64,000 nucleotides of DNA from Escherichia coli (GTDB taxonomy: Bacteria; Pseudomonadota; Gammaproteobacteria; Enterobacterales; Enterobacteriaceae), in assembly GCF_003018255.1 (NCBI RefSeq), contig NZ_CP027440.1, one strand, 5' to 3'. Made by a program: the position numbers and the translations under genes. Positions 1-25,146 of the stretch are shown in pieces. The notes beneath the pieces were generated by a model. The model was given only the letters and a program-made list of their open reading frames with translations. It searched no databases and was not told the origin of the DNA. Position 1 is the stretch's first letter, and every line of letters begins with the position of its first letter.

Positions 1-688
1 CTGCTTCCGGTCCCGGATAGAGAAAAATGGTGGCTTCCACGCGATACGGGATGATTTCTGCGCTGCGAACCGTAAGACGGTCAGCCACCGGGCGGACGTT
101 CTCACTGTTCAGAGCTTTTTCCACCACGTCCAGCAGGTCTTTTTCTGCAGTTCCATCGCCTTCGCGGCTAAGGACAGTCAGCACCACCTCTGCAGGTGCC
201 GGGCTGGTTGCACTGGCATCCGCCACCCGACCGTCGGCGCTTCGGGCATGAAATTCATAAGCTGCAGTTGGCCCCGCAACAGAAAGCCCTTCAAAGGCTG
301 CAGGCACACGCAGGCGCAACGCTTCATCGCTTTCCATCACAGCTGCAACGGGCGGCACAGCATCATTATCAGCAGGCGTCACCGTCAGGCGTGTCACGTT
401 GTAGTTGGCAGCGAGCTGGTCAAGATCGCCGCCCATCGCGTAAGCCACCATCACCGCCTGCGCGGCTTCGTTAATGCGCTGGCGCAGAAGCAACTCACGG
501 TAAGCGTTCTCCTGCAACAATTTAGTGGCGGGTTCAGATTCCAGTTCCAGCGTGCGGATCACTGCTTCCTGCTCATCTTTCGGATGAAGCGCCACAAATT
601 CTGCCTTGCGTTCGGCAAGCAGCGTCTCAAAGTCCGGCACATCCACAATCTGCGGTGCAGGCAACTGCGAAAGGTCAATCACTGCCAT
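1..688 (-). CDS. Phage baseplate assembly protein (P2 gpJ-like), partial; runs off window start
   Basis: Minus-strand ATG at 688..686 translates MAVIDLSQLPAPQIVDV, like the gpJ N-terminus; sits after gpW in P2 order. Plus-strand ORFs here are antisense shadows. Confidence 0.8.
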   Translation of the reverse strand, partial: MAVIDLSQLPAPQIVDVPDFETLLAERKAEFVALHPKDEQEAVIRTLELESEPATKLLQENAYRELLLRQRINEAAQAVMVAYAMGGDLDQLAANYNVTRLTVTPADNDAVPPVAAVMESDEALRLRVPAAFEGLSVAGPTAAYEFHARSADGRVADASATSPAPAEVVLTVLSREGDGTAEKDLLDVVEKALNSENVRPVADRLTVRSAEIIPYRVEATIFLYPGPEA

Positions 689-1034
689 TCTCTGCTCCTG
701 TTGATACGGAAAGGGACACAGGCACACCGTTATTCCGCCGCCCGGTCAGCTCCACCACCATTGAACCGTCAAAATTGCTGTTGATGGTGATGGAATCCAG
801 CGTCAACCGTGGCTCCCAGCGACTCAGCGCCACATACACTGCAGACATGACCTGCAGGCGTAATGCCGGATTTTGTGGCTGATCTATCAGTGCCGACAGC
901 AGGGAACCATATTCCCGGCGGGCAATACGGCTACCCTGCGGTGTCAGCAGAATGTCCCGCACCGACTGGCGCAGATGATCAATATCAGTAATGACTTTGC
1001 CGCTGGTATTGTTCATCCCGCTATAAAGCGTCAT
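675..1034 (-). CDS. Baseplate protein gpW (GPW/gp25 family)
   Basis: 119 aa; position between gpV and gpJ as in P2; family-like sequence. Confidence 0.8.
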   Translation of the reverse strand: MTLYSGMNNTSGKVITDIDHLRQSVRDILLTPQGSRIARREYGSLLSALIDQPQNPALRLQVMSAVYVALSRWEPRLTLDSITINSNFDGSMVVELTGRRNNGVPVSLSVSTGAENGSD

Positions 1035-1609
1035 ACCGGGCCTCCGGTTGTATCGCCGCCTTTCAGGACGCCAGTATGCTGATGCGCATCAACCACGATC
1101 CCGTTAGAACTCATCGCTCCGCCGCCCTGGGTAACGCCACCATTGATCACCACTTCGCTGTTAATGCGCGTGCGGTCAGCCTCCAGTACAAACTCACTGG
1201 TTTTCATGGTGATGTTGTCAGCAGCCTCAATGACCATTGATTTGATGCCCCTGACATACCAGCGCCCGGTGGCGGGTTCGTATTCAAACCAGCCACCGTC
1301 AGGATGTTCTGTCACGCAGGCGTCCGCCGACGTCGACGGTGGTGCGAACTGATTCGAATAGACAGCGGGCAGCGCAAAGGCGGTTTCCAGATTGCCGCCC
1401 AGACTCAGCAGCACCACCTGCTCACCTTCCGATGGTCGCCACCATGTACGGGCATTCCCGGCACGCAGCGTCAGCCAGCTGATCCAGTTGGTTTCAAGCT
1501 CGCCCGTTTTCACCCGGCAAAGCCAGTTTTCCCTGTCCACTTCGGTGACTACCCCTGTGCGGATCAGGTTGGTGATAAGGCGCATGATTTCGGTTAATTG
1601 TGCGTTCAT
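1031..1609 (-). CDS. Baseplate spike/assembly protein gpV
   Basis: 192 aa; P2 gene order R-S-V-W-J; start overlaps gpW stop. Confidence 0.8.
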   Translation of the reverse strand: MNAQLTEIMRLITNLIRTGVVTEVDRENWLCRVKTGELETNWISWLTLRAGNARTWWRPSEGEQVVLLSLGGNLETAFALPAVYSNQFAPPSTSADACVTEHPDGGWFEYEPATGRWYVRGIKSMVIEAADNITMKTSEFVLEADRTRINSEVVINGGVTQGGGAMSSNGIVVDAHQHTGVLKGGDTTGGPV

Positions 1610-1677
1610 AGGGAAAGGTTGCCATCAGGGGAAGAAAGGCGGCAGTGCTGCAACTTGTATCAGTGCTGATACAAAGA

Positions 1678-2124
1678 TCACCCCGCCAGCCATTGCAGAA
1701 TCATGTCGCGGGTCATTGCCTCAACATCATCATTTACACCCAGCAGGCGGCGCTCTGCGTAACGGACCTCCGGTCCTTTGCGACTGACGCGATCACGCAG
1801 GCCGTAATGGTGAACACGGGCAATACGCTGCACCTTGCCTTCAAACTGTACGCTGGCAGAGTCGGCGCTGGCGGCAGTTTTCAGGTATTTTGTGGTGCGC
1901 AACTTTGCAAACATCTGACGTTTGATGCGGCCTTTTTTGCTGCGTGCTGTTACCCTGCGCGGTTCATAACTGCTGCCATCTGGATTGCGCTGCATCCTGA
2001 TATTCTGCTGCTGTGTCCGGCGCAGTTCCTGCGCCAGCTGGCGCATCATGCGGCTTCTCGTGGCTGGTTCCAGATTCGCCAGCAAGGCACTCAGCCAGTC
2101 GTCCACCTTCTGCAGTTCAGCCAC
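1678..2124 (-). CDS. Tail completion / virion morphogenesis protein gpS
   Basis: 148 aa; position and size match P2 S. Confidence 0.75.
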   Translation of the reverse strand: MAELQKVDDWLSALLANLEPATRSRMMRQLAQELRRTQQQNIRMQRNPDGSSYEPRRVTARSKKGRIKRQMFAKLRTTKYLKTAASADSASVQFEGKVQRIARVHHYGLRDRVSRKGPEVRYAERRLLGVNDDVEAMTRDMILQWLAG

Positions 2125-2569
2125 GTTTCACCGTCCACATTTCTTCAGGTTCATCGGGTTCTGCTACAGCTTCAACGCTCGACACACTGCCGTCAGTACT
2201 GACCAGCACACGTTCCGTCAATTGCAGGTTAAGGCTGATATCACAGACATCGTTGCGCAAAATATCCACCTCAAAGGTGAATAGCTTTTCCCGTAACGCC
2301 GGGTTATTGATGGCATCGGGCTGGTTATCCCGAAGCCACAGTAAAACCGGGGCCATCAGCAGATTCTGGTCGCCGCTGAAATCCTCAATCACCACGTTCA
2401 GGGTGTAGCGGTACTCCCATGACATGGAGCTGGCCCCCGTGGCAACCAGCGAACCGTTATCCACAAACAGATGCAGTTTGTCCGGGTTATTGCGGACATA
2501 AGGCACCGCTTTATTGAGGGCGTGGCGCAGGGATTGTGGTTTGTTCACTGTTTCGCTCCTGACACGCAA
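2117..2569 (-). CDS. Tail completion protein gpR
   Basis: 150 aa; the motif PDKLHLFVDNGSL resembles P2 R as I recall it; true start may lie a few codons in. Confidence 0.75.
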   Translation of the reverse strand: MRVRSETVNKPQSLRHALNKAVPYVRNNPDKLHLFVDNGSLVATGASSMSWEYRYTLNVVIEDFSGDQNLLMAPVLLWLRDNQPDAINNPALREKLFTFEVDILRNDVCDISLNLQLTERVLVSTDGSVSSVEAVAEPDEPEEMWTVKRG

Positions 2570-2801
2570 TAATCATGTCCACTTTGTCTGCACAGACCGC
2601 CCAGGCGGCCTCCGTTTCATCCAGCAACGCGTTCAGGCCACCGTTAGTGCGCGGCGCTGCCTGATCCAGCCGACACGGCGTCACTCGCGGACAACCACTG
2701 ACGGTAAGCTGCACCTCCGGTGAGTGTGGGGCGTTCCCGCAGCCGGATAATGTCAGCAGGCAAAGGAGTATCAGCCCAGCGGCGTAAATCCTCGTTCTCA
2801 C
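2511..2801 (-). CDS. Outer-membrane spanin lipoprotein (LysC/Rz1-like)
   Basis: 96 aa with N-terminal signal and lipobox LTLSGC; partly embedded in the LysB frame, as in P2 lysB/lysC. Confidence 0.6.
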   Translation of the reverse strand: MRTRIYAAGLILLCLLTLSGCGNAPHSPEVQLTVSGCPRVTPCRLDQAAPRTNGGLNALLDETEAAWAVCADKVDMIIACQERNSEQTTIPAPRPQ

Positions 2802-3072
2802 GTTTCAGTTCCTCAATCCGGTGTTGTCGTTGTCTCAGCAGTACACTGGTCTGTTCTGCTTCGGCATAGAGCCGCGCCTGCTCCCGATTATTGGTTTCAG
2901 TCAGAATGGACAGGCTGATAAGCTGGCTGTTGCTCTTTGCCAGTGCCTGGCTTTTGCTCCGAAGCTCGTCTGCCTGCGTGCTGATGGTCTGGCTGGCATC
3001 AGCCAGCCGCCACGTCTGCCAGCCCAGCGCCGCCAGTAATAACGCCAGCACAACCAGCAGCAACCGGTTCAT
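2644..3072 (-). CDS. Inner-membrane spanin (LysB/Rz-like)
   Basis: 142 aa; N-terminal TM helix then coiled-coil-like region; follows lysA. Confidence 0.7.
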   Translation of the reverse strand: MNRLLLVVLALLLAALGWQTWRLADASQTISTQADELRSKSQALAKSNSQLISLSILTETNNREQARLYAEAEQTSVLLRQRQHRIEELKRENEDLRRWADTPLPADIIRLRERPTLTGGAAYRQWLSASDAVSAGSGSAAH

Positions 3073-4922: not shown

Positions 4923-5573
4923 TCAGCGGCTGTCATTGCGCAGTCTGCGCTCCAGCTGCTGTTTGTCTTTTTTCACGCCACAGCGGGGAGCGAGCTGTAA
5001 CGCATGGTTGAGATGGTTAAGGGCAGAAGCCGGATTGCTTTCACTCAGGACAGCGCCAATCGCTTTATGCAGACGCGCCCGTGACTGGTCCGGCATATCC
5101 AGACCGTCTGTTAGTTCCAGTGTCTGCAGCAACAGATCGGCATCAAAGCCGGTGGCGGCAAGCATTGCGCTCTGCGCCGCGTCTGCCATTTCCTCTGCCA
5201 GCACGGTCTGCACGTTGCGGTTACCCAGCGGCATCACCCAGCCATGACGCAGGGCATGACGCCCGATCTCCAGCGCCCCGGCATAATCTCCGGCATCAAT
5301 GCGCCACAGCATCACGTACATCAGCACGTCATCCTGTTGAGCGCCTCCGGCAGCCAGAACGCCCTCCGCCCAGGCGGTATATTTCGGCAGCAGCTCCACC
5401 TTGATTTCCGCTTTTTTGACCGTGGACTGAACGCCCTTGAGACGGCGGCGGTCTTCCGCCAGTTGCAGCAGCATCAGGTCATAGCCCGACGCGTGGCAAA
5501 CACTGCCACCCTCGCGAGCGGCCTGTTCAGCCTGAACGCGCAGGCGATGCTGCCGTGCGGGACTCAGGCTCAT
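4923..5573 (-). CDS. Terminase small (endonuclease) subunit gpM
   Basis: 216 aa; position N-M-L as in P2. Confidence 0.8.
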   Translation of the reverse strand: MSLSPARQHRLRVQAEQAAREGGSVCHASGYDLMLLQLAEDRRRLKGVQSTVKKAEIKVELLPKYTAWAEGVLAAGGAQQDDVLMYVMLWRIDAGDYAGALEIGRHALRHGWVMPLGNRNVQTVLAEEMADAAQSAMLAATGFDADLLLQTLELTDGLDMPDQSRARLHKAIGAVLSESNPASALNHLNHALQLAPRCGVKKDKQQLERRLRNDSR

Positions 5574-7627: not shown

Positions 7628-9394
7628 ATGAACACCACACTGACACCCGCAGATCTCGATCCCCGTCGGCAGGCCATGCTGCTGTACTTTCAGGGATACC
7701 GCGTAGCCCGCATTGCTGAAATGCTGGGCGAGAAAGTTGCAACCGTTCACAGCTGGAAAAAACGCGACAAGTGGGGTGACTATGGGCCGCTGGATCAGAT
7801 GCAGCTCACCACCGCCGCACGCTACTGCCAGCTCATCATGAAGGAGCACAAAGAAGGGAAAGATTTCAAAGAGATTGACCTGCTGGCGCGCCAGTCTGAG
7901 CGCCACGCGCGGATCGGCAAGTTTAACAATGGCGGCAACGAATCCGACTTAAACCCTAACGTCGCCAACCGCAACAAAGGCCCACGCCGTCAGCCGGAAA
8001 AGAATGTTTTCACCGATGAGCAGATTGAGAAGCTGGAAGAAATCTTCCATTCCTCCATGTTCAACTACCAGCGCCACTGGTGGGAAGCCGGAAAAACCAA
8101 CCGCATCCGCAACCTGCTGAAGTCACGCCAGATCGGCGCGACCTTTTACTTTGCCCGTGAAGCCCTGATTGACGCCCTACTGACCGGACGTAACCAGATT
8201 TTCCTTTCCGCCAGCAAGGCACAGGCCCACGTCTTTAAGCAGTACATCATCGACTTCGCCAAAGAAGTGGAGGTGGAGTTGAAAGGCGATCCGATGGTGC
8301 TTCCTAACGGGGCCACGCTTTACTTCCTCGGCACCAATGCCCGCACGGCCCAGAGTTATCACGGCAACCTGTATCTGGATGAATATTTCTGGATACCGAA
8401 ATTCCAGGAGCTGCGCAAAGTGGCTTCCGGTATGGCTATTCACAAGAAATGGCGACAAACCTATTTTTCCACGCCATCCAGCCTGACACACAGTGCTTAT
8501 CCGTTCTGGTCCGGTGCGCTATTCAACCGTGGGCGCAACAAAGCAGATAAGGTGGACATCGACCTGTCCCACAGCAATCTGGCCCCCGGCCTGCTGTGCG
8601 CAGACGGGCAATACCGCCAGATTGTCACCGTGGAAGATGCAGTGCGCGGCGGATGTAACCTGTTCGACCTCGATCAGTTACGCATGGAGTACAGCCCGGA
8701 CGAATACCAGAACCTGCTGATGTGCGAGTTTGTGGACGATCTCGCGTCTGTGTTCCCACTCAGCGAGCTGCAGGCGTGCATGGTGGACAGCTGGGAAGTC
8801 TGGACCGACTTTCATGCACTGGCACTGCGCCCATTTGGCTGGCGCGAAGTGTGGATCGGTTATGACCCTGCGAAAGGTACGCAGAACGGCGACAGTGCCG
8901 GATGCGTGGTGGTGGCACCGCCAGCCGTGCCGGGCGGCAAGTTCCGCATTCTTGAGCGTCACCAGTGGCGCGGGATGGACTTTCGCGCCCAGGCTGACGC
9001 CATCAAAAAACTGACCGAACAGTACAACGTGACCTATATCGGCATCGACTCAACCGGCGTTGGTCACGGGGTTTATGAGAACGTGAAAGCGTTCTTTCCT
9101 GCCGTCCGGGAGTTTGTCTACAACCCCAACGTTAAAAACGCCCTGGTACTCAAGGCCTACGACATTATCAGCCACCGCCGTCTGGAGTTTGACGCCGGGC
9201 ACACCGACATTGCGCAGTCATTCATGGCAATCCGTCGCGCCACCACCGCCAGTGGCAACCGCCCGACCTATGAAGCCAGCCGCAGCGAAGAAGCCAGCCA
9301 CGCCGATCTGGCCTGGGCAACGATGCACGCACTGTTTAACGAACCGCTGCAGGGCGAATCCGCCAATACCAGCAATATTGTGGAGATTTTTTGA
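7628..9394 (+). CDS. Terminase large (ATPase) subunit gpP
   Basis: 588 aa; P2 P-like length and sequence. Confidence 0.9.
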   Translation: MNTTLTPADLDPRRQAMLLYFQGYRVARIAEMLGEKVATVHSWKKRDKWGDYGPLDQMQLTTAARYCQLIMKEHKEGKDFKEIDLLARQSERHARIGKFNNGGNESDLNPNVANRNKGPRRQPEKNVFTDEQIEKLEEIFHSSMFNYQRHWWEAGKTNRIRNLLKSRQIGATFYFAREALIDALLTGRNQIFLSASKAQAHVFKQYIIDFAKEVEVELKGDPMVLPNGATLYFLGTNARTAQSYHGNLYLDEYFWIPKFQELRKVASGMAIHKKWRQTYFSTPSSLTHSAYPFWSGALFNRGRNKADKVDIDLSHSNLAPGLLCADGQYRQIVTVEDAVRGGCNLFDLDQLRMEYSPDEYQNLLMCEFVDDLASVFPLSELQACMVDSWEVWTDFHALALRPFGWREVWIGYDPAKGTQNGDSAGCVVVAPPAVPGGKFRILERHQWRGMDFRAQADAIKKLTEQYNVTYIGIDSTGVGHGVYENVKAFFPAVREFVYNPNVKNALVLKAYDIISHRRLEFDAGHTDIAQSFMAIRRATTASGNRPTYEASRSEEASHADLAWATMHALFNEPLQGESANTSNIVEIF

Positions 9395-10419
9395 TGGGAA
9401 AGAGTAAGAAGAACCGCGCTGCGGCGACGAAACAGATCCAGCTTAAAAGTCAAACTACAGCCGAAGCATTCAGCTTCGGCGATCCCGTTCCTGTTCTGGA
9501 CCGCCGAGAATTACTGGACTATGTGGAATGCGTACAGATGGACCGTTGGTATGAGCCGCCCGTCAGCTTTGACGGACTGGCGCGCACCTTCCGCGCTGCA
9601 GTGCATCACAGTTCCCCGATTGCAGTAAAGTGCAACATTCTGACCAGTACCTACATCCCTCACCCGCTGCTCAGCCAGCAGGCTTTTTCACGTTTTGTGC
9701 AGGACTATCTGGTATTTGGTAACGCCTACCTGGAGAAACGCACGAACCGATTCGGTGAAGTTATCGCCCTTGAGCCTGCGCTGGCAAAATACACCCGACG
9801 CGGGTTAGACCTGGATACCTACTGGTTTGTGCAATACGGCATGACTACACAGCCGTATCAGTTCACGAAAGGCAGCATTTTTCACCTGATGGAACCGGAT
9901 ATCAACCAGGAGATCTACGGCCTGCCCGGTTATCTTTCTGCCATTCCGTCAGCCCTGCTCAACGAGTCCGCCACGCTGTTCCGCCGGAAGTATTACATTA
10001 ACGGTAGTCATGCAGGCTTCATCATGTACATGACCGATGCCGCGCAGAACCAGGAGGATGTGAACAACCTCCGCAATGCGATGAAAAGCGCCAAAGGCCC
10101 TGGCAACTTCCGCAATCTGTTTATGTACTCGCCTAACGGCAAAAAGGACGGACTTCAGATTATCCCGTTGTCAGAAGTCGCAGCGAAGGATGAGTTTCTG
10201 AATATCAAAAATGTTAGTCGCGATGACATGATGGCAGCACACCGCGTGCCGCCACAGATGATGGGGATAATGCCAAATAATGTCGGGGGGTTTGGGGATG
10301 TGGAAAAAGCGAGTTTAGTGTTTGTGAGGAACGAATTAATACCCTTACAGAAAAGGATGCAGGAATTAAATAAATGGCTTGAAGATAATATATTACAATT
10401 CAAACCATATAAATTTTAA
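9391..10419 (+). CDS. Portal protein gpQ
   Basis: 342 aa; start overlaps the gpP stop; P2 Q-like. Confidence 0.9.
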   Translation: MMGKSKKNRAAATKQIQLKSQTTAEAFSFGDPVPVLDRRELLDYVECVQMDRWYEPPVSFDGLARTFRAAVHHSSPIAVKCNILTSTYIPHPLLSQQAFSRFVQDYLVFGNAYLEKRTNRFGEVIALEPALAKYTRRGLDLDTYWFVQYGMTTQPYQFTKGSIFHLMEPDINQEIYGLPGYLSAIPSALLNESATLFRRKYYINGSHAGFIMYMTDAAQNQEDVNNLRNAMKSAKGPGNFRNLFMYSPNGKKDGLQIIPLSEVAAKDEFLNIKNVSRDDMMAAHRVPPQMMGIMPNNVGGFGDVEKASLVFVRNELIPLQKRMQELNKWLEDNILQFKPYKF

Positions 10420-10460
10420 CGAAAAATCAGCCTTGGCGTTCATAACGTTAGGGCTGTTCA

Positions 10461-12430
<1,970 letters not shown>

Positions 12431-12459
12431 ATTTTGCCTATTTTAGGTGATAGCGCGCG

Positions 12460-12478
12460 CTCGTATCCCCGCCACGCC
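12460..12478. other. Candidate phage cos site
   Basis: Minus-strand read GGCGTGGCGGGGATACGAG; the first 13 nt match the 19-nt cohesive end of phage 186 as I recall it (GGCGTGGCGGGGAAAGCAT). Lies between the tum-like module and the portal side, as expected in the P2/186 map. Confidence 0.45.
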
Positions 12479-12526
12479 TGCCCGCTTTATGTAGTGGTTT
12501 TCATGCACCTGCATGATCTACGCAAA

Positions 12527-12546
12527 AGCCCGCCAGTTCTGGCGGG
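12527..12546 (-). terminator. Rho-independent terminator-like hairpin downstream of the DinI-like gene
   Basis: Perfect 9-bp stem GCCCGCCAG/CTGGCGGGC followed by TTTTG on the minus strand. Confidence 0.5.
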
Positions 12547-12682
12547 CCTTAGCAAAAACGATCCTCAAACGATCATGCGATCTCATGCGGCATAGACATG
12601 CACTACAGAGCTAACGCCTCGCAAGGGCTCGTTGTTCAACCTTGCTGACGCCAGAAACAAGTTCAGACGCCAGCAACGTTTC

Positions 12683-12916
12683 TTAATGCAGCCAGCTGTC
12701 GTCTTCCCACACCTTTTGCATAATTTTCATCACTTGCTTCCTTTCTTCGTCCAGTTGCAGTCCTGTCAGTTCCACACCGTTAGAGCTACCTTTACGGATA
12801 CGAATTACCGTTTTGGGATACAGGGGGCGCAGATTGCGGTAAAGCTCGGATTCAAGGGCGTCCAGGGTAGACTGGCTAATCTTCTGCTCTTTATCGATCA
12901 TTATTTCAATGCGCAT
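12683..12916 (-). CDS. DinI-family protein (Tum C-terminal-like)
   Basis: Start at MRIEIMIDK gives about 77 aa, resembling E. coli DinI (MRIEV...); downstream of a LexA box. Confidence 0.7.
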   Translation of the reverse strand: MRIEIMIDKEQKISQSTLDALESELYRNLRPLYPKTVIRIRKGSSNGVELTGLQLDEERKQVMKIMQKVWEDDSWLH

Positions 12917-12926
12917 AAAAGTCACC

Positions 12927-13115
12927 TCAGCTGATGACATCCATTGAGCGGTTGTATTCGTGGGTTCTGATTTTTGCCATGAGTTCATCTGTCAGTTCAG
13001 AAACCCACTGCAGAGCCAGCCCCTTCTCTTCATCACTACACTCACTAGCCGCTACAAGCTTAAGAAAAAAATCAATGCGCTGGAGCTTCAAAGACTCCAA
13101 AAAATAGTCCTGCAT
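12927..13115 (-). CDS. Small SOS-controlled protein (possible Tum N-terminal part)
   Basis: About 62 aa from MQDYF; overlaps the DinI-like ORF in another frame; first ORF after the LexA box. Confidence 0.45.
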   Translation of the reverse strand: MQDYFLESLKLQRIDFFLKLVAASECSDEEKGLALQWVSELTDELMAKIRTHEYNRSMDVIS

Positions 13116-13158
13116 CTTTCCTCCTATGACACCACACGCAATACTGTATGTATAACCA

Positions 13159-13174
13159 CTGTTTATATTTACAG
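13159..13174. promoter_or_regulatory. LexA (SOS) box
   Basis: Exact CTGT-N8-ACAG palindrome CTGTTTATATTTACAG about 45 bp upstream of the small ORF, in an AT-rich promoter-like stretch. Confidence 0.7.
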
Positions 13175-13268
13175 TATATAATAATCTTACTGATGTAAAA
13201 CGTTTTTTTACATTCATCAGCCTGATATGCCTGGTATTATTAAGAGCACGAATTGTTAACCCGCGTAA

Positions 13269-15710
13269 TTAATACAGGTTCCGCCACTGATCATCTTCCT
13301 GCAAACGCTGGTTCCGATAGAAGATACGCAGGCCTGCTCCTGACGGAATACTGCCTCCGCGAAGGAGTAAATCGACCTCTTTCTCGCTGCCATCAAATCC
13401 TCTGGACTTCAGCTCATACACGAGCTGCAGTCGCTGATGGTCTGTAATTCGCTGTTTGTAGTCTTTACGCCGTTTCGGTTTCACCAGGCGTAACCTTGCA
13501 GCCAGTTCCCGGCGCTCTTTTTTGCTCATACTGTGCAGGTAATCGTGCAACTCCTTGTCATCCATGCGGGTAATGTCCGTTCTGGTATCCCCATCAGCTG
13601 ATTTGTCTTTCCCTTGTTGGTTCAAATTTTCAGCAAGGGGACAGTTATTGCCACGAGTCCAAGGGGCGCAAGCGCCCTGGTCGGCTGCCGCCTCCTGAAC
13701 GTCAACGGCCTTACGAACCATTTTCCACTTCACTGCATGAGTGCAGATCTTGCCCTCTGCAATGGGTGACCAGATGCCATAAATACGAATACCGTGATCA
13801 CCATAGGCGGTCGGCTCTTCGTTGATTTCATAAGCGGTTCTGATCAAGTGATATTTGCGGGGAACCAGTACGCCGCCCTGCTTCATAATGTAGGTGGCAA
13901 AACAGCCAGCATCAGCAGCAGCCAGAATGGCATCAAGGCGCGGGTTATCCAGTACCGACGCACCTGCTTTTTTGTCACCCTGTTGCCTTGCCGCCTGACC
14001 AGCCAGCAATCGCAGTTCACGGTAAGCCTGACGCCCCGGAATGCCAAAGAAGCGGAATTGCTGAACACGATGCAGAGACGCCCAGGCATTAACGTATTCA
14101 GCATTATCACGCAGGGATTTACCCGTTTCCTTGCTGATCTCGCCAGCCAGACCACGCCCGTCAATGTTCTTACTGATGTATTTCGCGATGTAGCTTGTTG
14201 GCGTACCTTTGCGCGGGTTTATCAGCTCAGACTTAAAGCGTGGCCCCGTGTTATTACCCAGCTCCTCGCGGTCTTCACGAATGGCAAACTTACGCAGCAA
14301 AGCAGTAATGGCGCGGCGATCTTTTTTGCGCATGAAACACAACAGGTGCCAGTGAACTGTGCCGTCATGATGCGGCTCAGCCACCCGCACGCCATACCAG
14401 CGCAACCCGGTTTTGTGCATAGCCTTACGAAATGCAGCAAACATGCCGACCAGATAATCGCTGCTTTGTCTTACCGTCGCGTTTGTCCAGGTCGGGTTTG
14501 GTCTGCCGTTATTGAGCGTGGAATGGAAACGCGACGGACAGGTGATGGTGTAGAAAACGGCACAGTCACTGCGCATTTCCGCGATAAGCTCCAGACCTTT
14601 AACACAGGCCATCATCTCATTGCGGCGATGCGCCGGGTTGCTGCTGCTGGCCTTTACCACATCTTCCATATCCAGCGTGTCGCCGTTTTCGTTCACCAGT
14701 TCATGAGAACGGAAAAACTCCAGCGACTTACGGCGCTGCTCACGTTTATGCATCACGGCTTCATAGCTGACATAGGGAGATGCTTTTTTGCTGACCAGGC
14801 AGACAGCACGCAACTGCTCTTCCCGCCATTCGCAGCGCATCTTCCATAATTTCCGATACCACCAGTCGGCACACAACATACGCGCCAGCGAACCCGGAAT
14901 GAGTTCATAGGGCACGGGTTTGCGACGCTTTCTTTTCCGACGAAGTTGCTCAAACGCAGGCGGGATAACATCCAGTCGCAGGGTTTCCGCTGCCACCTTT
15001 TCCCATGTCTTGCGGATTTCTTCTGGCTTAACATCATCGGTGGCGTACAAATCACCACAAGCGGCATCAAGGCACATGCTCATATGCGCAGCTACCAGGG
15101 TGGACAGGCGTTTCACCTGATCCTGACTCATTTCAGGCAGGATCAGCAGGCCGTCCAGCCCTTCATGGCTCGCCATAAAGCGAAAAGAAGTGGATAGCTG
15201 ACTGTCGCGTACATGCTCCAGCCGTTCCAGACATGGCTTAATCGTCTCACGCAAATAGCGAGAATAAGCCTTTGGCCTGCCCAGGCTGCTGAAGTATTCA
15301 ATACGTTGCATCAGCGGCTTGCTGATATGGGAAGGCTGGGCGTTAACGTCCGCCAGAATGACCATGTCCGGATTAAAACGCTGCTGCTCATGCGCCAGCT
15401 TTGCCCGGCTAATGAGCTTATCCTGCTCCATTTCGCGTTGGACAGGATCACGGGATTCATTAAAGAAATAACGCTCCCAGACCTGATCACTCAGTGCCTC
15501 GCGGCGCAGTTGTTCCTGCTCGTTATCGGCAGCGTACAGAGTGATCAGGTTTGAAAGCGCAGAAACCGGCGCAACTTCCGCCGGGTCCAGATAAGGGTTA
15601 ATGGCTTTCTTAGGTAAATTCCACGAATAACCCCCGGCAGAATTCTCAATGCTACCGGAAGTTACACTGACAAATGGATCGGCAAGACGGCCTGTGCTGA
15701 TCTCTGTCAC
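13269..15710 (-). CDS. Replication initiation endonuclease (P2/186 gpA-like)
   Basis: 813 aa; Y-x-K catalytic-tyrosine-like region (YIAKYISKN); position as in P2/186; start overlaps the upstream stop as ATGA. Confidence 0.85.
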
Positions 15711-16717
15711 TCACAGACTCCTGCATATACACTGCTGCACACCGCTTTATCATTCATGCCTGCCAGCAGGTCAAACTGCATACCGCCCCGAGTTGTTAAG
15801 GCCCAGTCCCGATAAGTTTCAATGCCATAAGCATCAACAGTTATGACTTCGATCCGTTTTTCATCACGGCGCGGATCATGCGTGGATGGAAAGAACGTTG
15901 AATTGCCACGTCTTGAACATTCCGCAACCAGTCTTTCCCACTCAGCCACTCGGCGGATTTCTTCTGGCCAGCGTTGGAAAATCTCAGCAAGTTCTGACTT
16001 GCGAGCATGAATACATGGCATACAACCGACACGACTGCATCCCTGCATATAAAGGGGGTTAGGCTTAATGCCATGACGTTTGGCAATAGCAAACACATCC
16101 TCATGCAGCCAATTAAGGATCGGACGATAAACATGCAGGCCCAGAGTATTGTCTGCATCGTCCTCCCACTCAGGCAACAATGCACGTTCCGGTGATTCCT
16201 GCCCCCGGACTCCTTGCCAGCTGATTACCTCATCGTATTCATCCAGAGCCGGATCGATTACCTGTGTACGTATTGGTTCATGTTTTAGTTCAAAAGTGCA
16301 GAAACGAGCTTTTGTTGAAGGGAAGCGACCTTTCCACATGCACAAATCAAGAAACGGAACGCCGGTTGGTTTAAGGATTTCCAGTGCCCGGTAAATACGT
16401 TCCTCAGCCTCATCTGTCGACATACCACATTCCTCAACGAGAGAAATGGGCCACTTTTCCGCAATGAATTTACGTTTCCCTTCTATCTGGCGTGTGAAAT
16501 CCGCTTTGACGCGAATAATCTTGCCCAGCTTTGATTCCAGATAATCCAGATATTCTATTGTCTGTGGATGTTCATGACCCGTATCGGCAAATACAGAAAT
16601 ATGCGGAACATCGTTTTCAATGGCTCTTAACCATTGAGCGAGACTATCTTTGCCACCAGAAGTAGTGATGATGTTAATGGTGCTTGAAGCAAAGCAACGC
16701 GGATCGATAGCATTCAT
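15707..16717 (-). CDS. PP-loop ATP pyrophosphatase, PAPS-reductase-like
   Basis: SGGKDS PP-loop motif near the N-terminus; C-terminal Cys clusters ([18 protein letters not shown]); ATGA-coupled to both neighbours. Confidence 0.75.
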
Positions 16718-17562
16718 GCGCGTACCTCAACGGTACGGTCAGAGCCGCTGGCAAAATCGACACCAAACCACCCAGCTGATTTGGTGGCAATGATTTCTGT
16801 TGCAGATTTACTCTCGCCAGCTGACACGCCAATGCTGCGTTTTGACTTGATGTAGTGGTGAGTGAAATTGCGATACAGCGAACGGATCAGGGATGTGTCA
16901 CTGTTAGAAACAATGACCGGATGACCTTCAGATGATCGATGTTCAAGAACGGATGCCAGGTGATACTGGTCATCTTCAGTGAAGCCATCAGTGTGATAGC
17001 CGGAAAACGTACCGTCATAAGGCGGATCGCAATATACCACATCCCCCACCTTCAACATCGCCAGCGTTTCATCAAAGCTGGCGCAGATAAACGTTGCCCG
17101 CTGGGCTTTCTCTGCAAATGCGCGAATTTCTTTTTCAGGGAAATACGGATTTTTATAATTACCGTAGGGAATGTTGAAATACCCGCTCTTGTTATAGCGA
17201 CATAGCCCACGGTAACCATGACGATTGAGATACAGAAAATATACCGCTTTCATGAAATCAGTAATTTCAGTGGAGTAATTAAACTCCTGCCTTATGTTGT
17301 AATAAGCCACCTCTCTGTTTGCTTCCTCAAATAAAGCTCTGGCACGAGATATAAACGCCTCACAATCAGCAGCAACCTTTTTATAGAGGTTGATTAAATC
17401 AGGATTAATATCCGCAACCAGATAGCTGGGGTAATCCGTCTCCATCATCACAGCACAAGAACCCGCGAAAGGTTCAACCAGTCGCGGGCCAGCAGGAAGG
17501 TATTTTTTCAGTTCGGACATAATGGCGGTTTTATTACCCGCCCATTTCAGGATGGTGCTCAT
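16714..17562 (-). CDS. dam: DNA adenine methyltransferase (Dam-like, N6-adenine)
   Basis: DPPY catalytic motif and an N-terminal SAM-binding region (FAGSCAV); start at [11 protein letters not shown] overlaps the upstream stop. Confidence 0.85.
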
Positions 17563-17861
17563 ACAGCACCTCCTGCAATAACATATCCTAAAGCTTCTAA
17601 TGGGGTTAATGAGCGAATTGATAGCATCACCCATTGTTCTGAAACTGCCATGACGTCATTAACCGGAAGCACATGAGAGATAACCGCGGCCCATTCCCTA
17701 CCCGTAAATACGCCATGCTTCCATTCGCAAAGAGAAAGAACATCACCAACTTTATAGCCACGATCGTCTTTACGAAGTTCAGCCGTCTTTTGACCTGCAA
17801 CCACAGCGTTGAAATACTTAGGTGCAATTTTTAATTGATGGATACGCACAGCCCCTGTCAT
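17559..17861 (-). CDS. ASCH/DUF3850-like small protein
   Basis: About 100 aa from [44 protein letters not shown] overlap with the TraR-like gene. Confidence 0.55.
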
Positions 17862-19926: not shown

Positions 19927-20069
19927 AAGGCAACATTCCTTCTAGATATGGCTTGTGGCGAGCCGTTGTTTGTCGTGATTAGTAGTGAAGGCTCCAAAAG
20001 AACACTTCTGGTTCAACTTTAAGATCTCTTTTGGAATCTGTCAACGAATTTTGGATTTCTTTGGAGGAC
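19927..20069. promoter_or_regulatory. Lysis-lysogeny switch region (pR/pL-like)
   Basis: Intergenic region between divergent apl and cI genes; inferred from 186 architecture, no promoter elements mapped. Confidence 0.4.
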
Positions 20070-20641
20070 TTGTGGATTTCAATAGCGGCGGTAAGAAAGC
20101 CATAGAACGTTTAGTTGAAGCATATGGGTTCGGTACCCGTCAGGCTCTCTGTGATCATTTAGGTGTTTCTAAGAGCACCATGGCAACGCGCTATATGCGT
20201 GATATTTTTCCAGCAGATTGGGTAATCCAGTGCGCCCTTGAAACGGGCACCTCGCTTAATTGGCTAACAACAGGGCATGGTTCAAAGCAAGCATCAGCAA
20301 ATACAAATACTATGGAAGTTGCTAAATATGTATTATCTGATGGGGCCTTGTGTGAAGACGGTTTTTATATTTTCGATAGGGAATTTCTACCGTCGGCATT
20401 CAAGAATATTTTTGCAATCACAGATAATAATTCTGAATTTGTTTGTGATAAGGAATTTGATGATATACGTGATGGTAAATGGGTAATAAGTATTGATGGC
20501 GAAATAACGATCCGTGACATTACTCGTTTACCCGGTGGAAGAATCTTCGTCGAGGGTGGAAACAGAGCCTTCGAATGCAAGATAGAAGACATTGAAATAA
20601 TTGGTAAAATTATAAGTTTAACAGTCAAGTATGTTAAATAG
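19985..20641 (+). CDS. CI-type immunity repressor (186 family)
   Basis: HTH region ([24 protein letters not shown]) plus C-terminal domain; ORF start is probably an over-call, true start likely near the GTG at about 20070. Confidence 0.75.
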
Positions 20642-20657
20642 TACCGGGAGGAAAACT

Positions 20658-20849
20658 ATGCTTGGTAAGGTATTTTTTGTGGTTTTGTCATGTTCTTTGT
20701 TATTAAACCCACTAACTACCTATGCTAGAAATTATCCCTGTTCAGGGAAAAAGGGAGGTGTTTCTCACTGTACCTCAGATGGCAAATTTGTTTGCAATGA
20801 TGGAACTATTAGTAAATCCAAAAAAATCTGTACTAAAAACTCACGATAA
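20658..20849 (+). CDS. Small secreted cysteine-rich protein (moron)
   Basis: 63 aa with signal peptide [23 protein letters not shown] and a mature part with six Cys; AT-rich; sits between cI and int. Confidence 0.5.
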
Positions 20850-21037
20850 CTTTTGCTTTTATATCTGCGCCTAAAATAAAAATGAGCCGCAGGTTAACCG
20901 CAAAAATTACATGCTCACATAGCAAAAAGAATAGCCAACTTAATTATGGCTTCAGTGAGATGTATGGTCGTAGGATTTCATACATTGACACTGGTTATAC
21001 ATACAGTGAAAATGCTCTCTACTGGAGGGCATTTTTT

Positions 21038-22081
21038 ATGGCAGTACGAAAACTAACCACAGGGAAATGGCTTTGCGAATGTTACCCCGCCGGACGCAGC
21101 GGGCGTCGCGTGCGTAAACAGTTCGCTACCAAAGGCGAAGCATTAGCTTTTGAGCGTCACACGATGGAGGAGGCAGAAGCTAAGCCTTGGCTTGGTGAAT
21201 CGGTAGACCGTCGAACTCTACAGGATATCGTTGAACTCTGGTTCAAACTGCACGGCAAATCCCTGACCGCTGGCGAGCATGTTTACGACAAGTTGATACT
21301 GATGGTCGATGCTCTCGGAAATCCCCTCGCCACCGATCTAACATCCAAAATGTTCGCGCACTATCGCGATAAGCGCCTGACGGGTGAAATCTACTTCAGC
21401 GAAAAATGGAAGAAAGGAGCCAGCCCGGTAACTATCAATCTGGAGCAAAGCTATCTGAGTGGGGTCTTTAGCGAGTTAGCCCGACTCGGTGAATGGACAG
21501 CACCAAATCCACTGGAGAACATGCGTAAATTCACCATTGCCGAAAAAGAAATGGCCTGGCTGACACATGAACAAATCACAGAGCTTCTGTTCGACTGTCA
21601 ACGCCAAAGCCCCCTGCTCGCTCTTGTCGTCAAAATCTGCTTGAGCACCGGAGCACGTTGGCGCGAAGCTGTGAACCTGACACGTTCTCAGGTCACGAAA
21701 TACCGAATCACATTTGTCAGAACTAAGGGCAAAAAAAACCGCAGCATTCCGATCAGCAAAGAGCTGTATGAGGAAATTGTTGCCCTAGACGGCTTCAAAT
21801 TATTTACTGACTGCTACTTCCAGTTTTTAGCCGTGATGGATAGAACCTCGATCGTACTACCACGCGGGCAACTTACCCACGTTCTACGCCATACGTTCGC
21901 AGCACATTTTATGATGTCCGGCGGGAACATTCTTGCTTTGCAAAAAATCCTGGGCCACCACGATATAAAAATGACTATGCGCTATGCACATCTTGCCCCT
22001 GATCACCTTGAAACAGCACTGCGTTTCAATCCATTAGCCACACTTTCCACTAAAGCAACGAACCTTGAAGCAAACAGCTAA
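21038..22081 (+). CDS. int: Tyrosine integrase (P2/186 family)
   Basis: C-terminal catalytic region HVLRHTFA...MRYAHL; start taken at MAVRKLTTGKW (347 aa). Confidence 0.9.
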   Translation: MAVRKLTTGKWLCECYPAGRSGRRVRKQFATKGEALAFERHTMEEAEAKPWLGESVDRRTLQDIVELWFKLHGKSLTAGEHVYDKLILMVDALGNPLATDLTSKMFAHYRDKRLTGEIYFSEKWKKGASPVTINLEQSYLSGVFSELARLGEWTAPNPLENMRKFTIAEKEMAWLTHEQITELLFDCQRQSPLLALVVKICLSTGARWREAVNLTRSQVTKYRITFVRTKGKKNRSIPISKELYEEIVALDGFKLFTDCYFQFLAVMDRTSIVLPRGQLTHVLRHTFAAHFMMSGGNILALQKILGHHDIKMTMRYAHLAPDHLETALRFNPLATLSTKATNLEANS

Positions 22082-22121
22082 CACGTTAAAATAGCGCACC
22101 TTCCCTTAATAGAGTAAAGCT

Positions 22122-22607
22122 ATGTCCGGCATTGCGGATTTTTTTTCAGTTGTGGCTGCAGTTGGGGCAGTTGTAATCATCCCTGCTGCATATCAACCTA
22201 TTTATCAATCATCTAAAACAAAAAACTATGAGTCTTTGGTAAAAGTTGATTGGGGCAATGAAGGTGACATCTCTACTTCTTATCCACATTTCATACATAT
22301 ACAGTTAGAGAAAGCAGAAGGTGATTGGACTTTTTCAGGAGAACTCATCTGCACAATTAATCCCGAAGAAAAGTTCGTCATTCAGGGTAAACTGAGATGT
22401 CTTAGGACTATAGATGCTGTAATACATCGTACTATTGGCTGGCGGGCTATTGAGATTGGAAAGGCTAAAATCAAGTATGACCGCCGCACAAATCAGTGTC
22501 GATTTATCCCACAAAAGGTTGCTCAGAAGAAACTTGAGACTGATTGCGAACGTGCAATCTTCAGCACCAGCCTCCCTTTATGGGGAAATGACAAATCTCC
22601 GGTATAA
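22122..22607 (+). CDS. Membrane-anchored hypothetical protein (moron between int and the prophage end)
   Basis: 161 aa with one N-terminal TM helix (FFSVVAAVGAVVIIPAAY); AT-rich codon usage unlike phage core genes. Confidence 0.5.
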   Translation: MSGIADFFSVVAAVGAVVIIPAAYQPIYQSSKTKNYESLVKVDWGNEGDISTSYPHFIHIQLEKAEGDWTFSGELICTINPEEKFVIQGKLRCLRTIDAVIHRTIGWRAIEIGKAKIKYDRRTNQCRFIPQKVAQKKLETDCERAIFSTSLPLWGNDKSPV

Positions 22608-22709
22608 GTGGCGACAAAGTGGCGGCAGCGGTTGGCATTGTCCCGTAATCGCCACTCCTTATCACTAACCTAACTTATTGATTGTCTTGCAACTCATTGT
22701 TATTTCTAA

Positions 22710-23699
22710 CCCATTTACATAAATGGCAATAAAGTTGAGCTATACGGCAAGATGGTTGGTGAGCGAATTCTGACCGACCGTGAAAATGGTGAAAAAGGCG
22801 ATAATTCTCAAGATACCTCTTATGCCCGTGTAGGCGTGAAAGGTGAAACTCAGATCAACCCTGAACTGACTGGTTACGGTCAGTTTGAACTAGACCTGGA
22901 AGCATCAAACAGACACAACCCTGACCAAACTCGTTTGGCATATGCTGGTTTGAGTTACAAAGATTTTGGTTCATTCGACTACGGTCGTAATGTCGGTGTC
23001 GCGTATGATGCAGAAGCATTTACTGATATGTTTGTTGAGTGGGGCGGTGACTCATGGGCTGGTACTGACCTGTTCATGACCAACCGTACCAACGGTGTTG
23101 CAACCTATCGTAACACAGATTTCTTTGGCATGGTTGAAGGTCTAAATTTTGCTCTGCAATATCAGGGTAAAAATGAAGGTACAGGCAACTACAAAGCAAA
23201 TGGCGATGGCCATGGTTTATCTGCAACTTACACTATTGACGGTTTCTCATTTGCTGGTGCTTATGCAAACTCTGACCGTACTGATTGGCAGTCTGGTGAT
23301 GGTAAAGGCGAAAGAGCCGAAGTTTGGGCGTTGTCAACAAAATATGACGCTAACAATGTCTATGCTGCTGTGATGTACGGTGAATCTCACAACATGAATT
23401 CCGACGACGGTGATGTTGTGAACAAAACACAAAACTTCGAAGCTGTTCTGCAATATCAGTTCGACTTTGGTCTGCGTCCATCCATCGGTTACTCCTATTC
23501 TAAAGCACTGGACGTAGCAGGTTACAAAGATTCTGATCGTCTGAACTATATTGAAATCGGTACCTGGTATTACTTCAATAAGAATATGAACGTATATACC
23601 GCTTATCAGATCAACCTGCTTGATAAGAGTGATTATGTTCTCGCTCATGGACTGAACACCGACGACCAACTGGCAGTTGGTATCGTCTACCAGTTCTAA
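22710..23699 (+). pseudogene. General porin gene (OmpC/OmpF/OmpS family), 5'-truncated
   Basis: Reading frame aligns to OmpC from about mature residue 3 onward (PIYINGNKVELYGK, then the C-terminal AVGIVYQF), but the signal peptide and promoter are absent and an in-frame stop lies at about 22707. Position upstream of hchA matches yedS in K-12. Confidence 0.7.
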
Positions 23700-23741
23700 T
23701 CAGCCAACGCGCCGAGGCGTGTTACTGTAAAACATAACACC

Positions 23742-23780
23742 AGCCTGAGTTCGTCCCTCATCGAACTCAGGCTTTTTTTA
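23742..23780 (+). terminator. Rho-independent terminator after the porin gene
   Basis: Hairpin CCTGAGTTCG...CGAACTCAGG followed by a T-run. Confidence 0.6.
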
Positions 23781-24294
23781 TTTGCATTTCATCGCCATCT
23801 GCGGCGCACGCAATTGCCAAAGCATATCGATACAGCCCCTTACCCTGCCCCTACTGGCACAATATCCTCTACCAGCAACTCTTCCAGCCAACACCCCAAA
23901 TGCATTTCTTTATAAATTTAATCTGTAACAAAACCGCTTCCCATATAGAAATATTTGCAAAAATAGTGCATGAAAAAAGCTTTTTCCCTACCAATCCGGG
24001 ATATAAATATTCATCAGTACCACAACATTCCACAGCACTAAATCTCTCCCCATCGCCCCCAAACCTCTGATAATGGTCTAAAATCATTGAGGCCACTTGC
24101 GACGACGTTACTCAATAAGGAAAGTTTGGCGTGAATAATATTCAACACCAGTGCAGCATCATAATTACATACTTACACCCGCCGACTACCGCTTTCGATA
24201 TATTGACTCAATTTTCCAGCCTGGGTAAAAATAACGACCAGCTCAGTCGCAAATATAGTGACTACCCTAACTAAGCAACAATAAGGAATACACT

Positions 24295-25146
24295 ATGACT
24301 GTTCAAACAAGTAAAAACCCGCAGGTCGATATTGCTGAAGATAATGCATTCTTCCCTTCAGAATATTCGCTTAGCCAATATACCAGTCCCGTCTCTGATC
24401 TTGATGGTGTGGACTATCCAAAACCGTATCGCGGTAAACATAAAATTCTGGTGATCGCCGCGGACGAACGTTATTTGCCGACCGATAACGGAAAACTGTT
24501 CTCGACCGGTAACCATCCGATTGAAACGTTGCTGCCGTTGTATCATCTCCACGCTGCAGGTTTCGAATTCGAAGTGGCGACCATTTCCGGTCTGATGACC
24601 AAGTTTGAATACTGGGCTATGCCACACAAAGATGAAAAAGTAATGCCATTCTTTGAGCAGCATAAATCGTTGTTCCGCAATCCGAAGAAACTCGCGGATG
24701 TTGTCGCCAGCCTCAACGCTGATAGCGAATATGCAGCAATCTTTGTTCCTGGTGGTCATGGCGCACTTATTGGTTTACCTGAAAGCCAGGACGTAGCTGC
24801 CGCTTTACAGTGGGCAATCAAAAATGACCGTTTTGTTATCTCCCTTTGCCACGGCCCGGCGGCTTTTCTGGCGCTTCGCCACGGCGATAACCCACTGAAT
24901 GGTTATTCCATTTGCGCATTCCCAGACGCCGCAGACAAACAAACGCCAGAGATAGGCTATATGCCGGGTCATCTCACCTGGTACTTCGGCGAAGAGCTGA
25001 AGAAAATGGGCATGAACATTATTAATGACGACATCACCGGGCGAGTACATAAGGACCGTAAAGTTCTCACCGGCGACAGTCCTTTCGCAGCGAATGCGTT
25101 GGGTAAACTGGCGGCGCAGGAAATGCTGGCAGCTTACGCGGGTTAA
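24295..25146 (+). CDS. hchA: Hsp31 glyoxalase III / protein deglycase
   Basis: 283 aa; DJ-1/PfpI-like sequence recognised as HchA. Confidence 0.9.
   Translation: MTVQTSKNPQVDIAEDNAFFPSEYSLSQYTSPVSDLDGVDYPKPYRGKHKILVIAADERYLPTDNGKLFSTGNHPIETLLPLYHLHAAGFEFEVATISGLMTKFEYWAMPHKDEKVMPFFEQHKSLFRNPKKLADVVASLNADSEYAAIFVPGGHGALIGLPESQDVAAALQWAIKNDRFVISLCHGPAAFLALRHGDNPLNGYSICAFPDAADKQTPEIGYMPGHLTWYFGEELKKMGMNIINDDITGRVHKDRKVLTGDSPFAANALGKLAAQEMLAAYAG

Follow-up and report, generated by a model that had tools for sequence, protein, structure and literature searches.

A cos-like motif next to a retron raises two questions about this stretch of Escherichia coli DNA (64 kb of contig NZ_CP027440.1, referred to as the window): whether the motif belongs to the cohesive-end packaging site (cos) of the surrounding prophage, and how the retron came to lie beside it. 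We consider it very probable (roughly 0.9) that the region 12453-12604 is the cos site of a prophage of the P2/186 family, Fels-2/Elveevirus type, and that retron Ec67 occupies the slot between cos and the portal gene.

The cohesive-end motif and the conserved module around it

A reading of the sequence alone had recorded a cos-like motif at 12437-12480, a span that comprises the motif proper and approximately 23 bp of retron-side sequence. The motif proper, read directly from the sequence, is a 19-mer:

12460-12478, minus strand: cohesive-end 19-mer; the minus strand reads GGCGTGGCGGGGATACGAG and the plus strand CTCGTATCCCCGCCACGCC

The minus-strand letters given in this sequence-only reading are exact, and its statement that the first 13 nucleotides equal the cohesive end of phage 186 agrees with the GenBank record of 186, in which cos is annotated at 1-19 as GGCGTGGCGGGGAAAGCAT. 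Overall, the window matches this record at 15 of 19 positions (four differences), with nucleotides 1-13 identical. The cosL annotated in the P2 record, GGCGAGGCGGGGAAAGCAC, and the corresponding sequence of P4 each match the window at 14 of 19 positions, i.e., they differ at five. The window sequence fits the G+C-rich 19-nt cohesive-end pattern of P2/186-family cos sites (GGCGnGGCGGGGAnnnnnn). A search of both strands of the 64-kb window for the 13-mer GGCGTGGCGGGGA, allowing up to one mismatch, returned a single occurrence, compared with 0.05 expected from shuffled sequences.

All 19 nucleotides are identical in Fels-2, SEN8, Cartapus, MLG42, 813R9, and E. coli B. The SEN8 record opens at this 19-mer, and the SEN8 genome announcement gives the predicted cos site as 'ggcgtggcggggatacgag', the same sequence as in the window. 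The record of Cartapus, in which the block is annotated as putative cos, begins 32 nt upstream of the 19-mer, and the record of EtG opens at the 19-mer position. The phage records were searched for experimentally determined ends at the window 19-mer, and none were found; the cos assignments of SEN8, Cartapus, and EtG are based on homology. The cos sites of P2, 186, and P4 are reportedly those described by Wang et al. in 1973 and by Ziermann and Calendar in 1990.

Ten sequences were aligned around the motif (the window, 186, P2, P4, SEN8, EtG, Cartapus, Fels-2, vB_EcoM-813R9, and vB_YpM_MLG42). For the linear records of 186, P2, P4, SEN8, EtG, and Cartapus, the right and left ends were joined before alignment. 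An alignment to the cos regions of P2 and 186 had been proposed as a check on the motif; the window block aligns with both and also with P4. The following elements were distinguished:

12453-12604, minus strand: whole conserved cos module, approximately 150 bp, with P2/186/P4 architecture and breakpoints on both sides
12453-12507, minus strand: 55-bp cos core, consisting of TGCATGAAAACC...AAGCGGGCA, the 19-mer, and CGCGCGC; defined by alignment and corresponding to the conserved core of P2/P4
12459-12453, minus strand: (C/T)GCGCGC, common to all ten aligned sequences
12488-12480, minus strand: AAGCGGGCA, common to all ten aligned sequences
12514-12496, minus strand: ATGCAnnTGCAT-AAAACC, common to all ten aligned sequences
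12503-12514, minus strand: ATGCAnnTGCAT, candidate terminase recognition element
12574-12603, minus strand: three (T)GCAT(G) repeats, candidate terminase recognition elements
12525-12550, minus strand: G+C-rich hairpin followed by UUUU, −25.1 kcal/mol, z −5.0, inside the cos module

The GCAT repeats, AAAACC, AAGnGGGC, the frame of the 19-mer, and GCGCGC are invariant across the ten sequences. Within the 55-bp core, a concept that goes back to Ziermann & Calendar (1990) as cited in PMC9594776 and PMC5694545, identity to the window amounts to 44/55 for 186, 42/55 for P2, and 43/55 for P4, and to 54-55/55 for the group of Fels-2, SEN8, Cartapus, MLG42, and 813R9. The cos region of the window is identical to that of phage vB_EcoM-813R9 in 160 of 160 bp. 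Directly past CGCGCGC on the portal side, identity falls to 5-15 of 33 positions in every comparison. Database searches and the alignment place the left breakpoint at 12452/12453 in all relatives, so that similarity ends 7 bp past the cohesive end. The right breakpoint lies at 12601-12604 in the Fels-2-type phages and in 12 Ec67-bearing E. coli genomes. Because of these sharp limits on both sides, the cos module can be described as an island of approximately 150 bp with variable DNA on either side. The block alignment, the 160-bp identity to 813R9, and the SEN8 19-mer all support the identification of the motif as cos that had been proposed from the sequence alone.

In the alignment, 186 and P4 have a hairpin at the place equivalent to 12525-12550 of the window. 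Judged by its fold and the adjoining uridines, this hairpin is likely the terminator of the orf62/dinI-like operon, which lies upstream on the same strand. The consensus scan for promoters and terminators missed this hairpin, which has a short U-tract.

Gene order on both sides of cos

On the minus strand, the order is gpA, a LexA box, orf62, a dinI-like gene, the putative terminator, cos, retron Ec67, a second hairpin, and the convergent portal gene. This order confirms the previous placement of the retron on the portal side of cos. Retron transcription proceeds in the direction of the portal gene and away from cos. On the replication side, the following features were found:

12683-13174, minus strand: SOS module, comprising the LexA box, orf62, and the DinI-like gene
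13159-13174, minus strand: LexA box CTGTTTATATTTACAG, the only perfect CTGT-N8-ACAG box in the 64-kb window
13115-12927, minus strand: orf62
12916-12683, minus strand: DinI-like gene, 77 aa, with a C-terminal match to the Tum/DinI family
13269-15710, minus strand: replication endonuclease, homolog of P2 gpA (phrog_91, E = 4e-288)

The LexA box lies between the stop codon of gpA and the orf62 operon. The DinI-like protein matches positions 64-148 of the 151 positions of the phrog_189 profile and stays below the NCBIfam cutoff for DinI. An SOS/Tum-like module on the replication side of cos had been proposed from the sequence; its position holds, and a LexA box lies upstream, but the label Tum-like is only partly justified, as the gene encodes a DinI-like protein of 77 aa and not a full-length Tum, which comprises 146 aa in 186. 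LexA box and operon mirror the p95/LexA/tum region at the right end of 186.

To the right of the cos module (boundary at 12601-12604), additional genes separate cos from the dinI-like gene in other genomes (L019, 22305-23090), namely a DUF8087 gene in strain E7-1N7, a hypothetical gene in GF4-3, and STM2726 in Fels-2. Cargo slots are therefore present on both sides of cos in the relatives, and the right-hand slot of the window is empty.

The portal side carries the retron cassette, the portal gene, and the terminase genes:

12390-12452, minus strand: retron-side junction and presumed msr promoter region, the first sequence that is not found in retron-less relatives
12259-12389, minus strand: msr-msd of retron Ec67, assigned by RNA fold
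10461-12221, minus strand: ret, encoding a reverse transcriptase (RT) fused to a Toprim endonuclease domain, 586 aa, type I-C, ATG at 12221
10428-10456, plus strand: 13-bp hairpin in the 41-bp spacer between ret and the portal gene, −17.9 kcal/mol, z −4.5; on the minus strand −12 kcal/mol, followed by AUUUUU
9391-10419, plus strand: portal gene, homolog of P2 Q and 186 W (phrog_68, E = 7e-175), full length and convergent on cos
7628-9394, plus strand: large (ATPase) subunit of the terminase, homolog of P2 gpP
4923-5573, minus strand: small/endonuclease subunit of the terminase, homolog of P2 gpM, ORF of 216 aa

To the left of 12452, the G+C content of the cassette is 30-35%, compared with 50-60% in the phage flanks. 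The minus strand from 12394 to 12256 folds with −59.3 kcal/mol (z −4.7), which is typical of a retron ncRNA. In this fold, a2 (12389-12377) pairs with a1 (12271-12259) over 13 bp, and the branching G of CAGA is located at 12376; CAGA is the branch (priming) context of Ec67 (PMC6868368). Judging from the fold and from the name Ec67, the 67-nt msd would comprise 12273-12339. No retron or other relevant RNA family was returned by an Rfam scan of 9000-14000 at E ≤ 1. The consensus scan for promoters and terminators gave no more sites than shuffled sequences and no convincing sigma-70 promoter for msr, and the promoter is presumed to lie within 12390-12452.

The ret product scores 704.4 bits against NCBIfam NF038237 (retron Ec67 family RNA-directed DNA polymerase/endonuclease; cutoff 450) and reaches E = 1.5e-216 against the PADLOC model RT-Toprim_I-C. 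Its 586 aa equal the published length of RT-Eco2 (586 residues; PMC6868368). Ec67 in this window is an anti-phage retron of type I-C. The ret ORF also runs upstream of the ATG through msd/msr (12222-12401), and the mechanically called ORF starts at 12401 and has 646 aa; PGAP calls in the relatives have 626 or 646 aa, compared with the published 586 aa. Since the frame continues upstream of the canonical ATG, the database entries are probably over-extended.

The portal protein is full length by alignment with the portal proteins of 186, P2, and 813R9, and the cognate gpM-, gpP-, and gpQ-like ORFs are all intact in the same element. In a relative that is 99.6% identical, the counterpart of the gpM-like protein is annotated as 'terminase endonuclease subunit'. 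The portal stop and the ret stop had been reported to be only 41 bp apart, too close for cos to lie between them; this spacer (10420-10460) has the length given and contains no cos-like motif. Its hairpin at 10428-10456 is possibly a bidirectional terminator, given the stems predicted on both strands. DNA homology of the portal gene to close relatives fades at 10364-10410. The last approximately 55 nt of the gene (10364-10419) are AT-rich like the cassette and diverged from the close relatives, and the encoded C-terminus is still typical of the family. On the portal side, the junction is thus fuzzy and falls within the final part of the gene; the cassette apparently came with a portal 3' end of its own, derived from another P2-like phage. 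A search for direct or inverted repeats on either side of the cassette, as a sign of transposition, found none.

The cargo slot in related phages and genomes

A cargo hotspot next to cos is said to have been treated earlier by Dodd and Egan in 1996 and by Nakayama in 1999. In the sequences compared here, six different occupants share the CGCGCGC junction, and the slot is empty in 186, P2, and EtG. The occupants are listed by phage or strain:

813R9: a Hypoth_Ymh-domain gene at the CGCGCGC junction
Fels-2: an ORF of 565 aa at the CGCGCGC junction
Cartapus: a DUF4145 gene at the CGCGCGC junction
SEN8: two genes at the CGCGCGC junction, one of them encoding a putative HNH endonuclease
E. coli GF4-3: an Ec67-family retron with 74% identical DNA, starting with T directly after CGCGCGC (L017, 1430-3448)
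E. coli B: retron Ec86 with effector gene, msr-msd, and RT

The promoter-proximal region of the GF4-3 retron is homologous to 12390-12452 of the window but diverged. In 186, P2, and EtG, approximately 140 bp separate the 19-mer from the portal terminator and approximately 170 bp separate it from the portal stop. P4 diverges straight after CGCGCGC, and the gop locus follows. The retron-cos arrangement of the window is found at ≥99% identity in 14 complete E. coli genomes of the collection. The presence of the GF4-3 variant in the same slot suggests that the Ec67 retron family has long resided next to cos.

The hotspot is bounded by gpA and the portal gene. In PMC5694545, the interval that separates cosL from the gpQ homolog is termed a hotspot for foreign genes, and the cos-proximal gpA-gpQ region of P2-like phages has been described as an anti-phage hotspot that includes retrons (Rousset, 2022; PMC9122126). 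The window does not differ in kind from this hotspot. As far as the work of Dodd & Egan (1996; Virology 219:115) is related in PMC6868368, PMC7826664, and PMC5694545, the arrangement was described there, and according to the same three articles Ec67 takes the place of the DNA from cos to the end of the portal (packaging) gene. Ec67 and Ec86 both replace the same approximately 180 bp (PMC6868368). The cos sites of P2, 186, and P4 resemble that of the window in the 19-nt G+C-rich end, the 55-bp core, and the upstream GCAT repeats, as well as in their position between accessory genes on the gpA side and a portal gene that is transcribed towards cos.

Ec67 (Retron-Eco2) in its 186-related prophage (Hsu et al., 1990, and Dodd & Egan, 1996, as related in citing articles) corresponds to the window in retron family, slot, and the presence of a Dam methylase gene in the early region. 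In E. coli B, Ec86 (Retron-Eco1) adjoins exactly the same 19-mer, with the CGCGCGC junction again 7 bp past it (+7), occupies the same position between cos and the portal gene, and is likewise transcribed away from cos. It differs from Ec67 by an RT of the St85 family and a separate effector gene, and the prophage that carries it is clearly defective, gpA and CII being truncated. Hence, the arrangement in the window is already known; it reproduces the one attributed to Dodd & Egan (1996) in the citing articles and the hotspot of Rousset (2022). Since the former described the arrangement and the latter generalized it, knowledge of it is unchanged by the present analysis. Added here are the window coordinates for cos, the predicted nick sites, and the retron parts, together with the two-sided island of approximately 150 bp and the fuzzy portal-side junction. 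These data anchor the prophage map at the place where the virion chromosome would begin and end, and they assign retron Ec67 as passenger cargo to a known cos-proximal defence hotspot rather than treating it as an independent element. For annotation, they provide the cos coordinates, a corrected ret start, and the placement of msr-msd.

Predicted packaging and alternative explanations

Homology with P2 and 186 predicts that the terminase (small subunit 4923-5573, large subunit 7628-9394) recognizes the conserved block, which extends mainly to the replication-gene side of the cleavage site and contains the repeated GCAT elements as putative binding sites. The nick positions predicted from the note in the 186 record are staggered by 19 nt (between 12479 and 12478 on the minus strand, between 12460 and 12459 on the plus strand), and cleavage at these positions would produce 5' overhangs of 19 nt. 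The left end of the linear virion DNA would then consist of the 5' overhang GGCGTGGCGGGGATACGAG and 7 bp, followed by the retron. Thus, the retron would provide the first genes at the left end of the virion DNA, and the LexA-controlled DinI-like operon would be the last at the right end, together with the GCAT repeats. CGCGCGC, the 7 bp next to the overhang, would be the last sequence needed for cos. The DNA between this point and the portal 3' end would represent a dispensable slot, the cargo of which differs among P2-like phages. According to the conservation pattern, the requirements lie within the 19-mer, the next 7 bp, and approximately 125 bp on the replication-gene side, and the portal side would tolerate replacement for this reason.

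Two alternatives concern the nature of the motif. A chance resemblance of the G+C-rich 13-mer, with the packaging site located elsewhere, was rejected. The initial evidence consisted of 13 nucleotides, and four of the six remaining ones differ from 186; however, the low expected count applies even with one mismatch, no other copy is present in the window, the surrounding 150 bp can be aligned to the cos regions of P2, 186, and P4, and a site between gpA and the portal gene is canonical. The motif could also be a true cos homolog but a non-functional relic, either in a defective prophage or because the placement of the retron, 7 bp from the cohesive end, removed packaging sequence; virion DNA ends would then never form at this site. 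We regard this as unlikely, though it has several observations on its side. The window begins inside the baseplate genes, so that the tail half of the prophage lies outside it; the closest relative, NZ_CP148326 (99.6% identical), has a truncated prophage, and the Ec86 prophage of E. coli B is a remnant. Furthermore, 186 and P2 are still alike for approximately 20 bp beyond CGCGCGC (GGTGG...), a stretch that the window lacks. However, P4, which is packaged by the P2 terminase, also loses similarity straight after CGCGCGC, and in the phages Cartapus, SEN8, and MLG42 the same +7 junction is occupied by unrelated cargo. Over 160 bp, the cis element agrees with its counterpart in phage 813R9 at 100% of positions, the ORFs for terminase, portal, capsid, and scaffold are intact in the prophage of the window, and strain E7-1N7 has an apparently complete Ec67 prophage with the same retron-cos arrangement. 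We retain the reading of 12453-12604 as a cos site with the retron in the adjoining slot.

With regard to the origin of this arrangement, exchange of the cassette between P2-like phages through recombination in the conserved flanks (cos and the portal 3' end) is the most likely route, because the portal 3' end is AT-rich, flanking repeats are absent, and the junction is common to unrelated cargo. Self-insertion of the retron beside cos by a site-specific or retro-transposition mechanism, instead of passive cassette exchange, is highly improbable. Such a mechanism would fit the observation that Ec67, Ec86, and the diverged Ec67 variant all abut cos at the same base, and the title of Hsu et al. 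(1990) indicates that a transposable element was originally proposed. Yet, cargo unrelated to retrons is found at the identical junction, neither direct nor inverted repeats surround the cassette, the retron has no integrase or transposase, and the portal-side junction is fuzzy within the AT-rich last approximately 55 nt, as expected for homologous exchange. It also appears very unlikely that the left DNA end made by the terminase serves to capture cargo, or that the position of the retron and its promoter at the tip of the virion chromosome couples retron expression or triggering to DNA entry, circularization, or cos cleavage. The data are fully explained by a dispensable slot between two conserved recombination anchors.

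Some further features of the prophage were noted. In NZ_CP148326, the prophage is cut inside the tail-fibre gene and abuts clpS (L005, 1-1048; L018). As it is devoid of the sheath, tube, tape-measure, and D genes, this prophage must be defective. In the window, a PAPS-reductase-like gene (336 aa) is located directly upstream of the prophage Dam methylase gene (15707-17634); it was absent at this position from the Ec67 prophages examined in the E. coli collection. Compared with sequenced Ec67 prophages, the window prophage has a mosaic backbone. None of the genomes in the collection is identical to the window; for window positions 1-3000, the best match reaches 99.3%. Its immunity/integration end (19985-25146) encodes a repressor of 218 aa and an integrase of 399 aa (20882-22081), and it includes an N-terminally truncated OmpC/PhoE-like porin ORF and hchA. 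The integrase abuts the truncated porin gene and hchA, whereas the relatives are located beside rcdA, which indicates that the window prophage uses a different attachment site from the rcdA-adjacent one.
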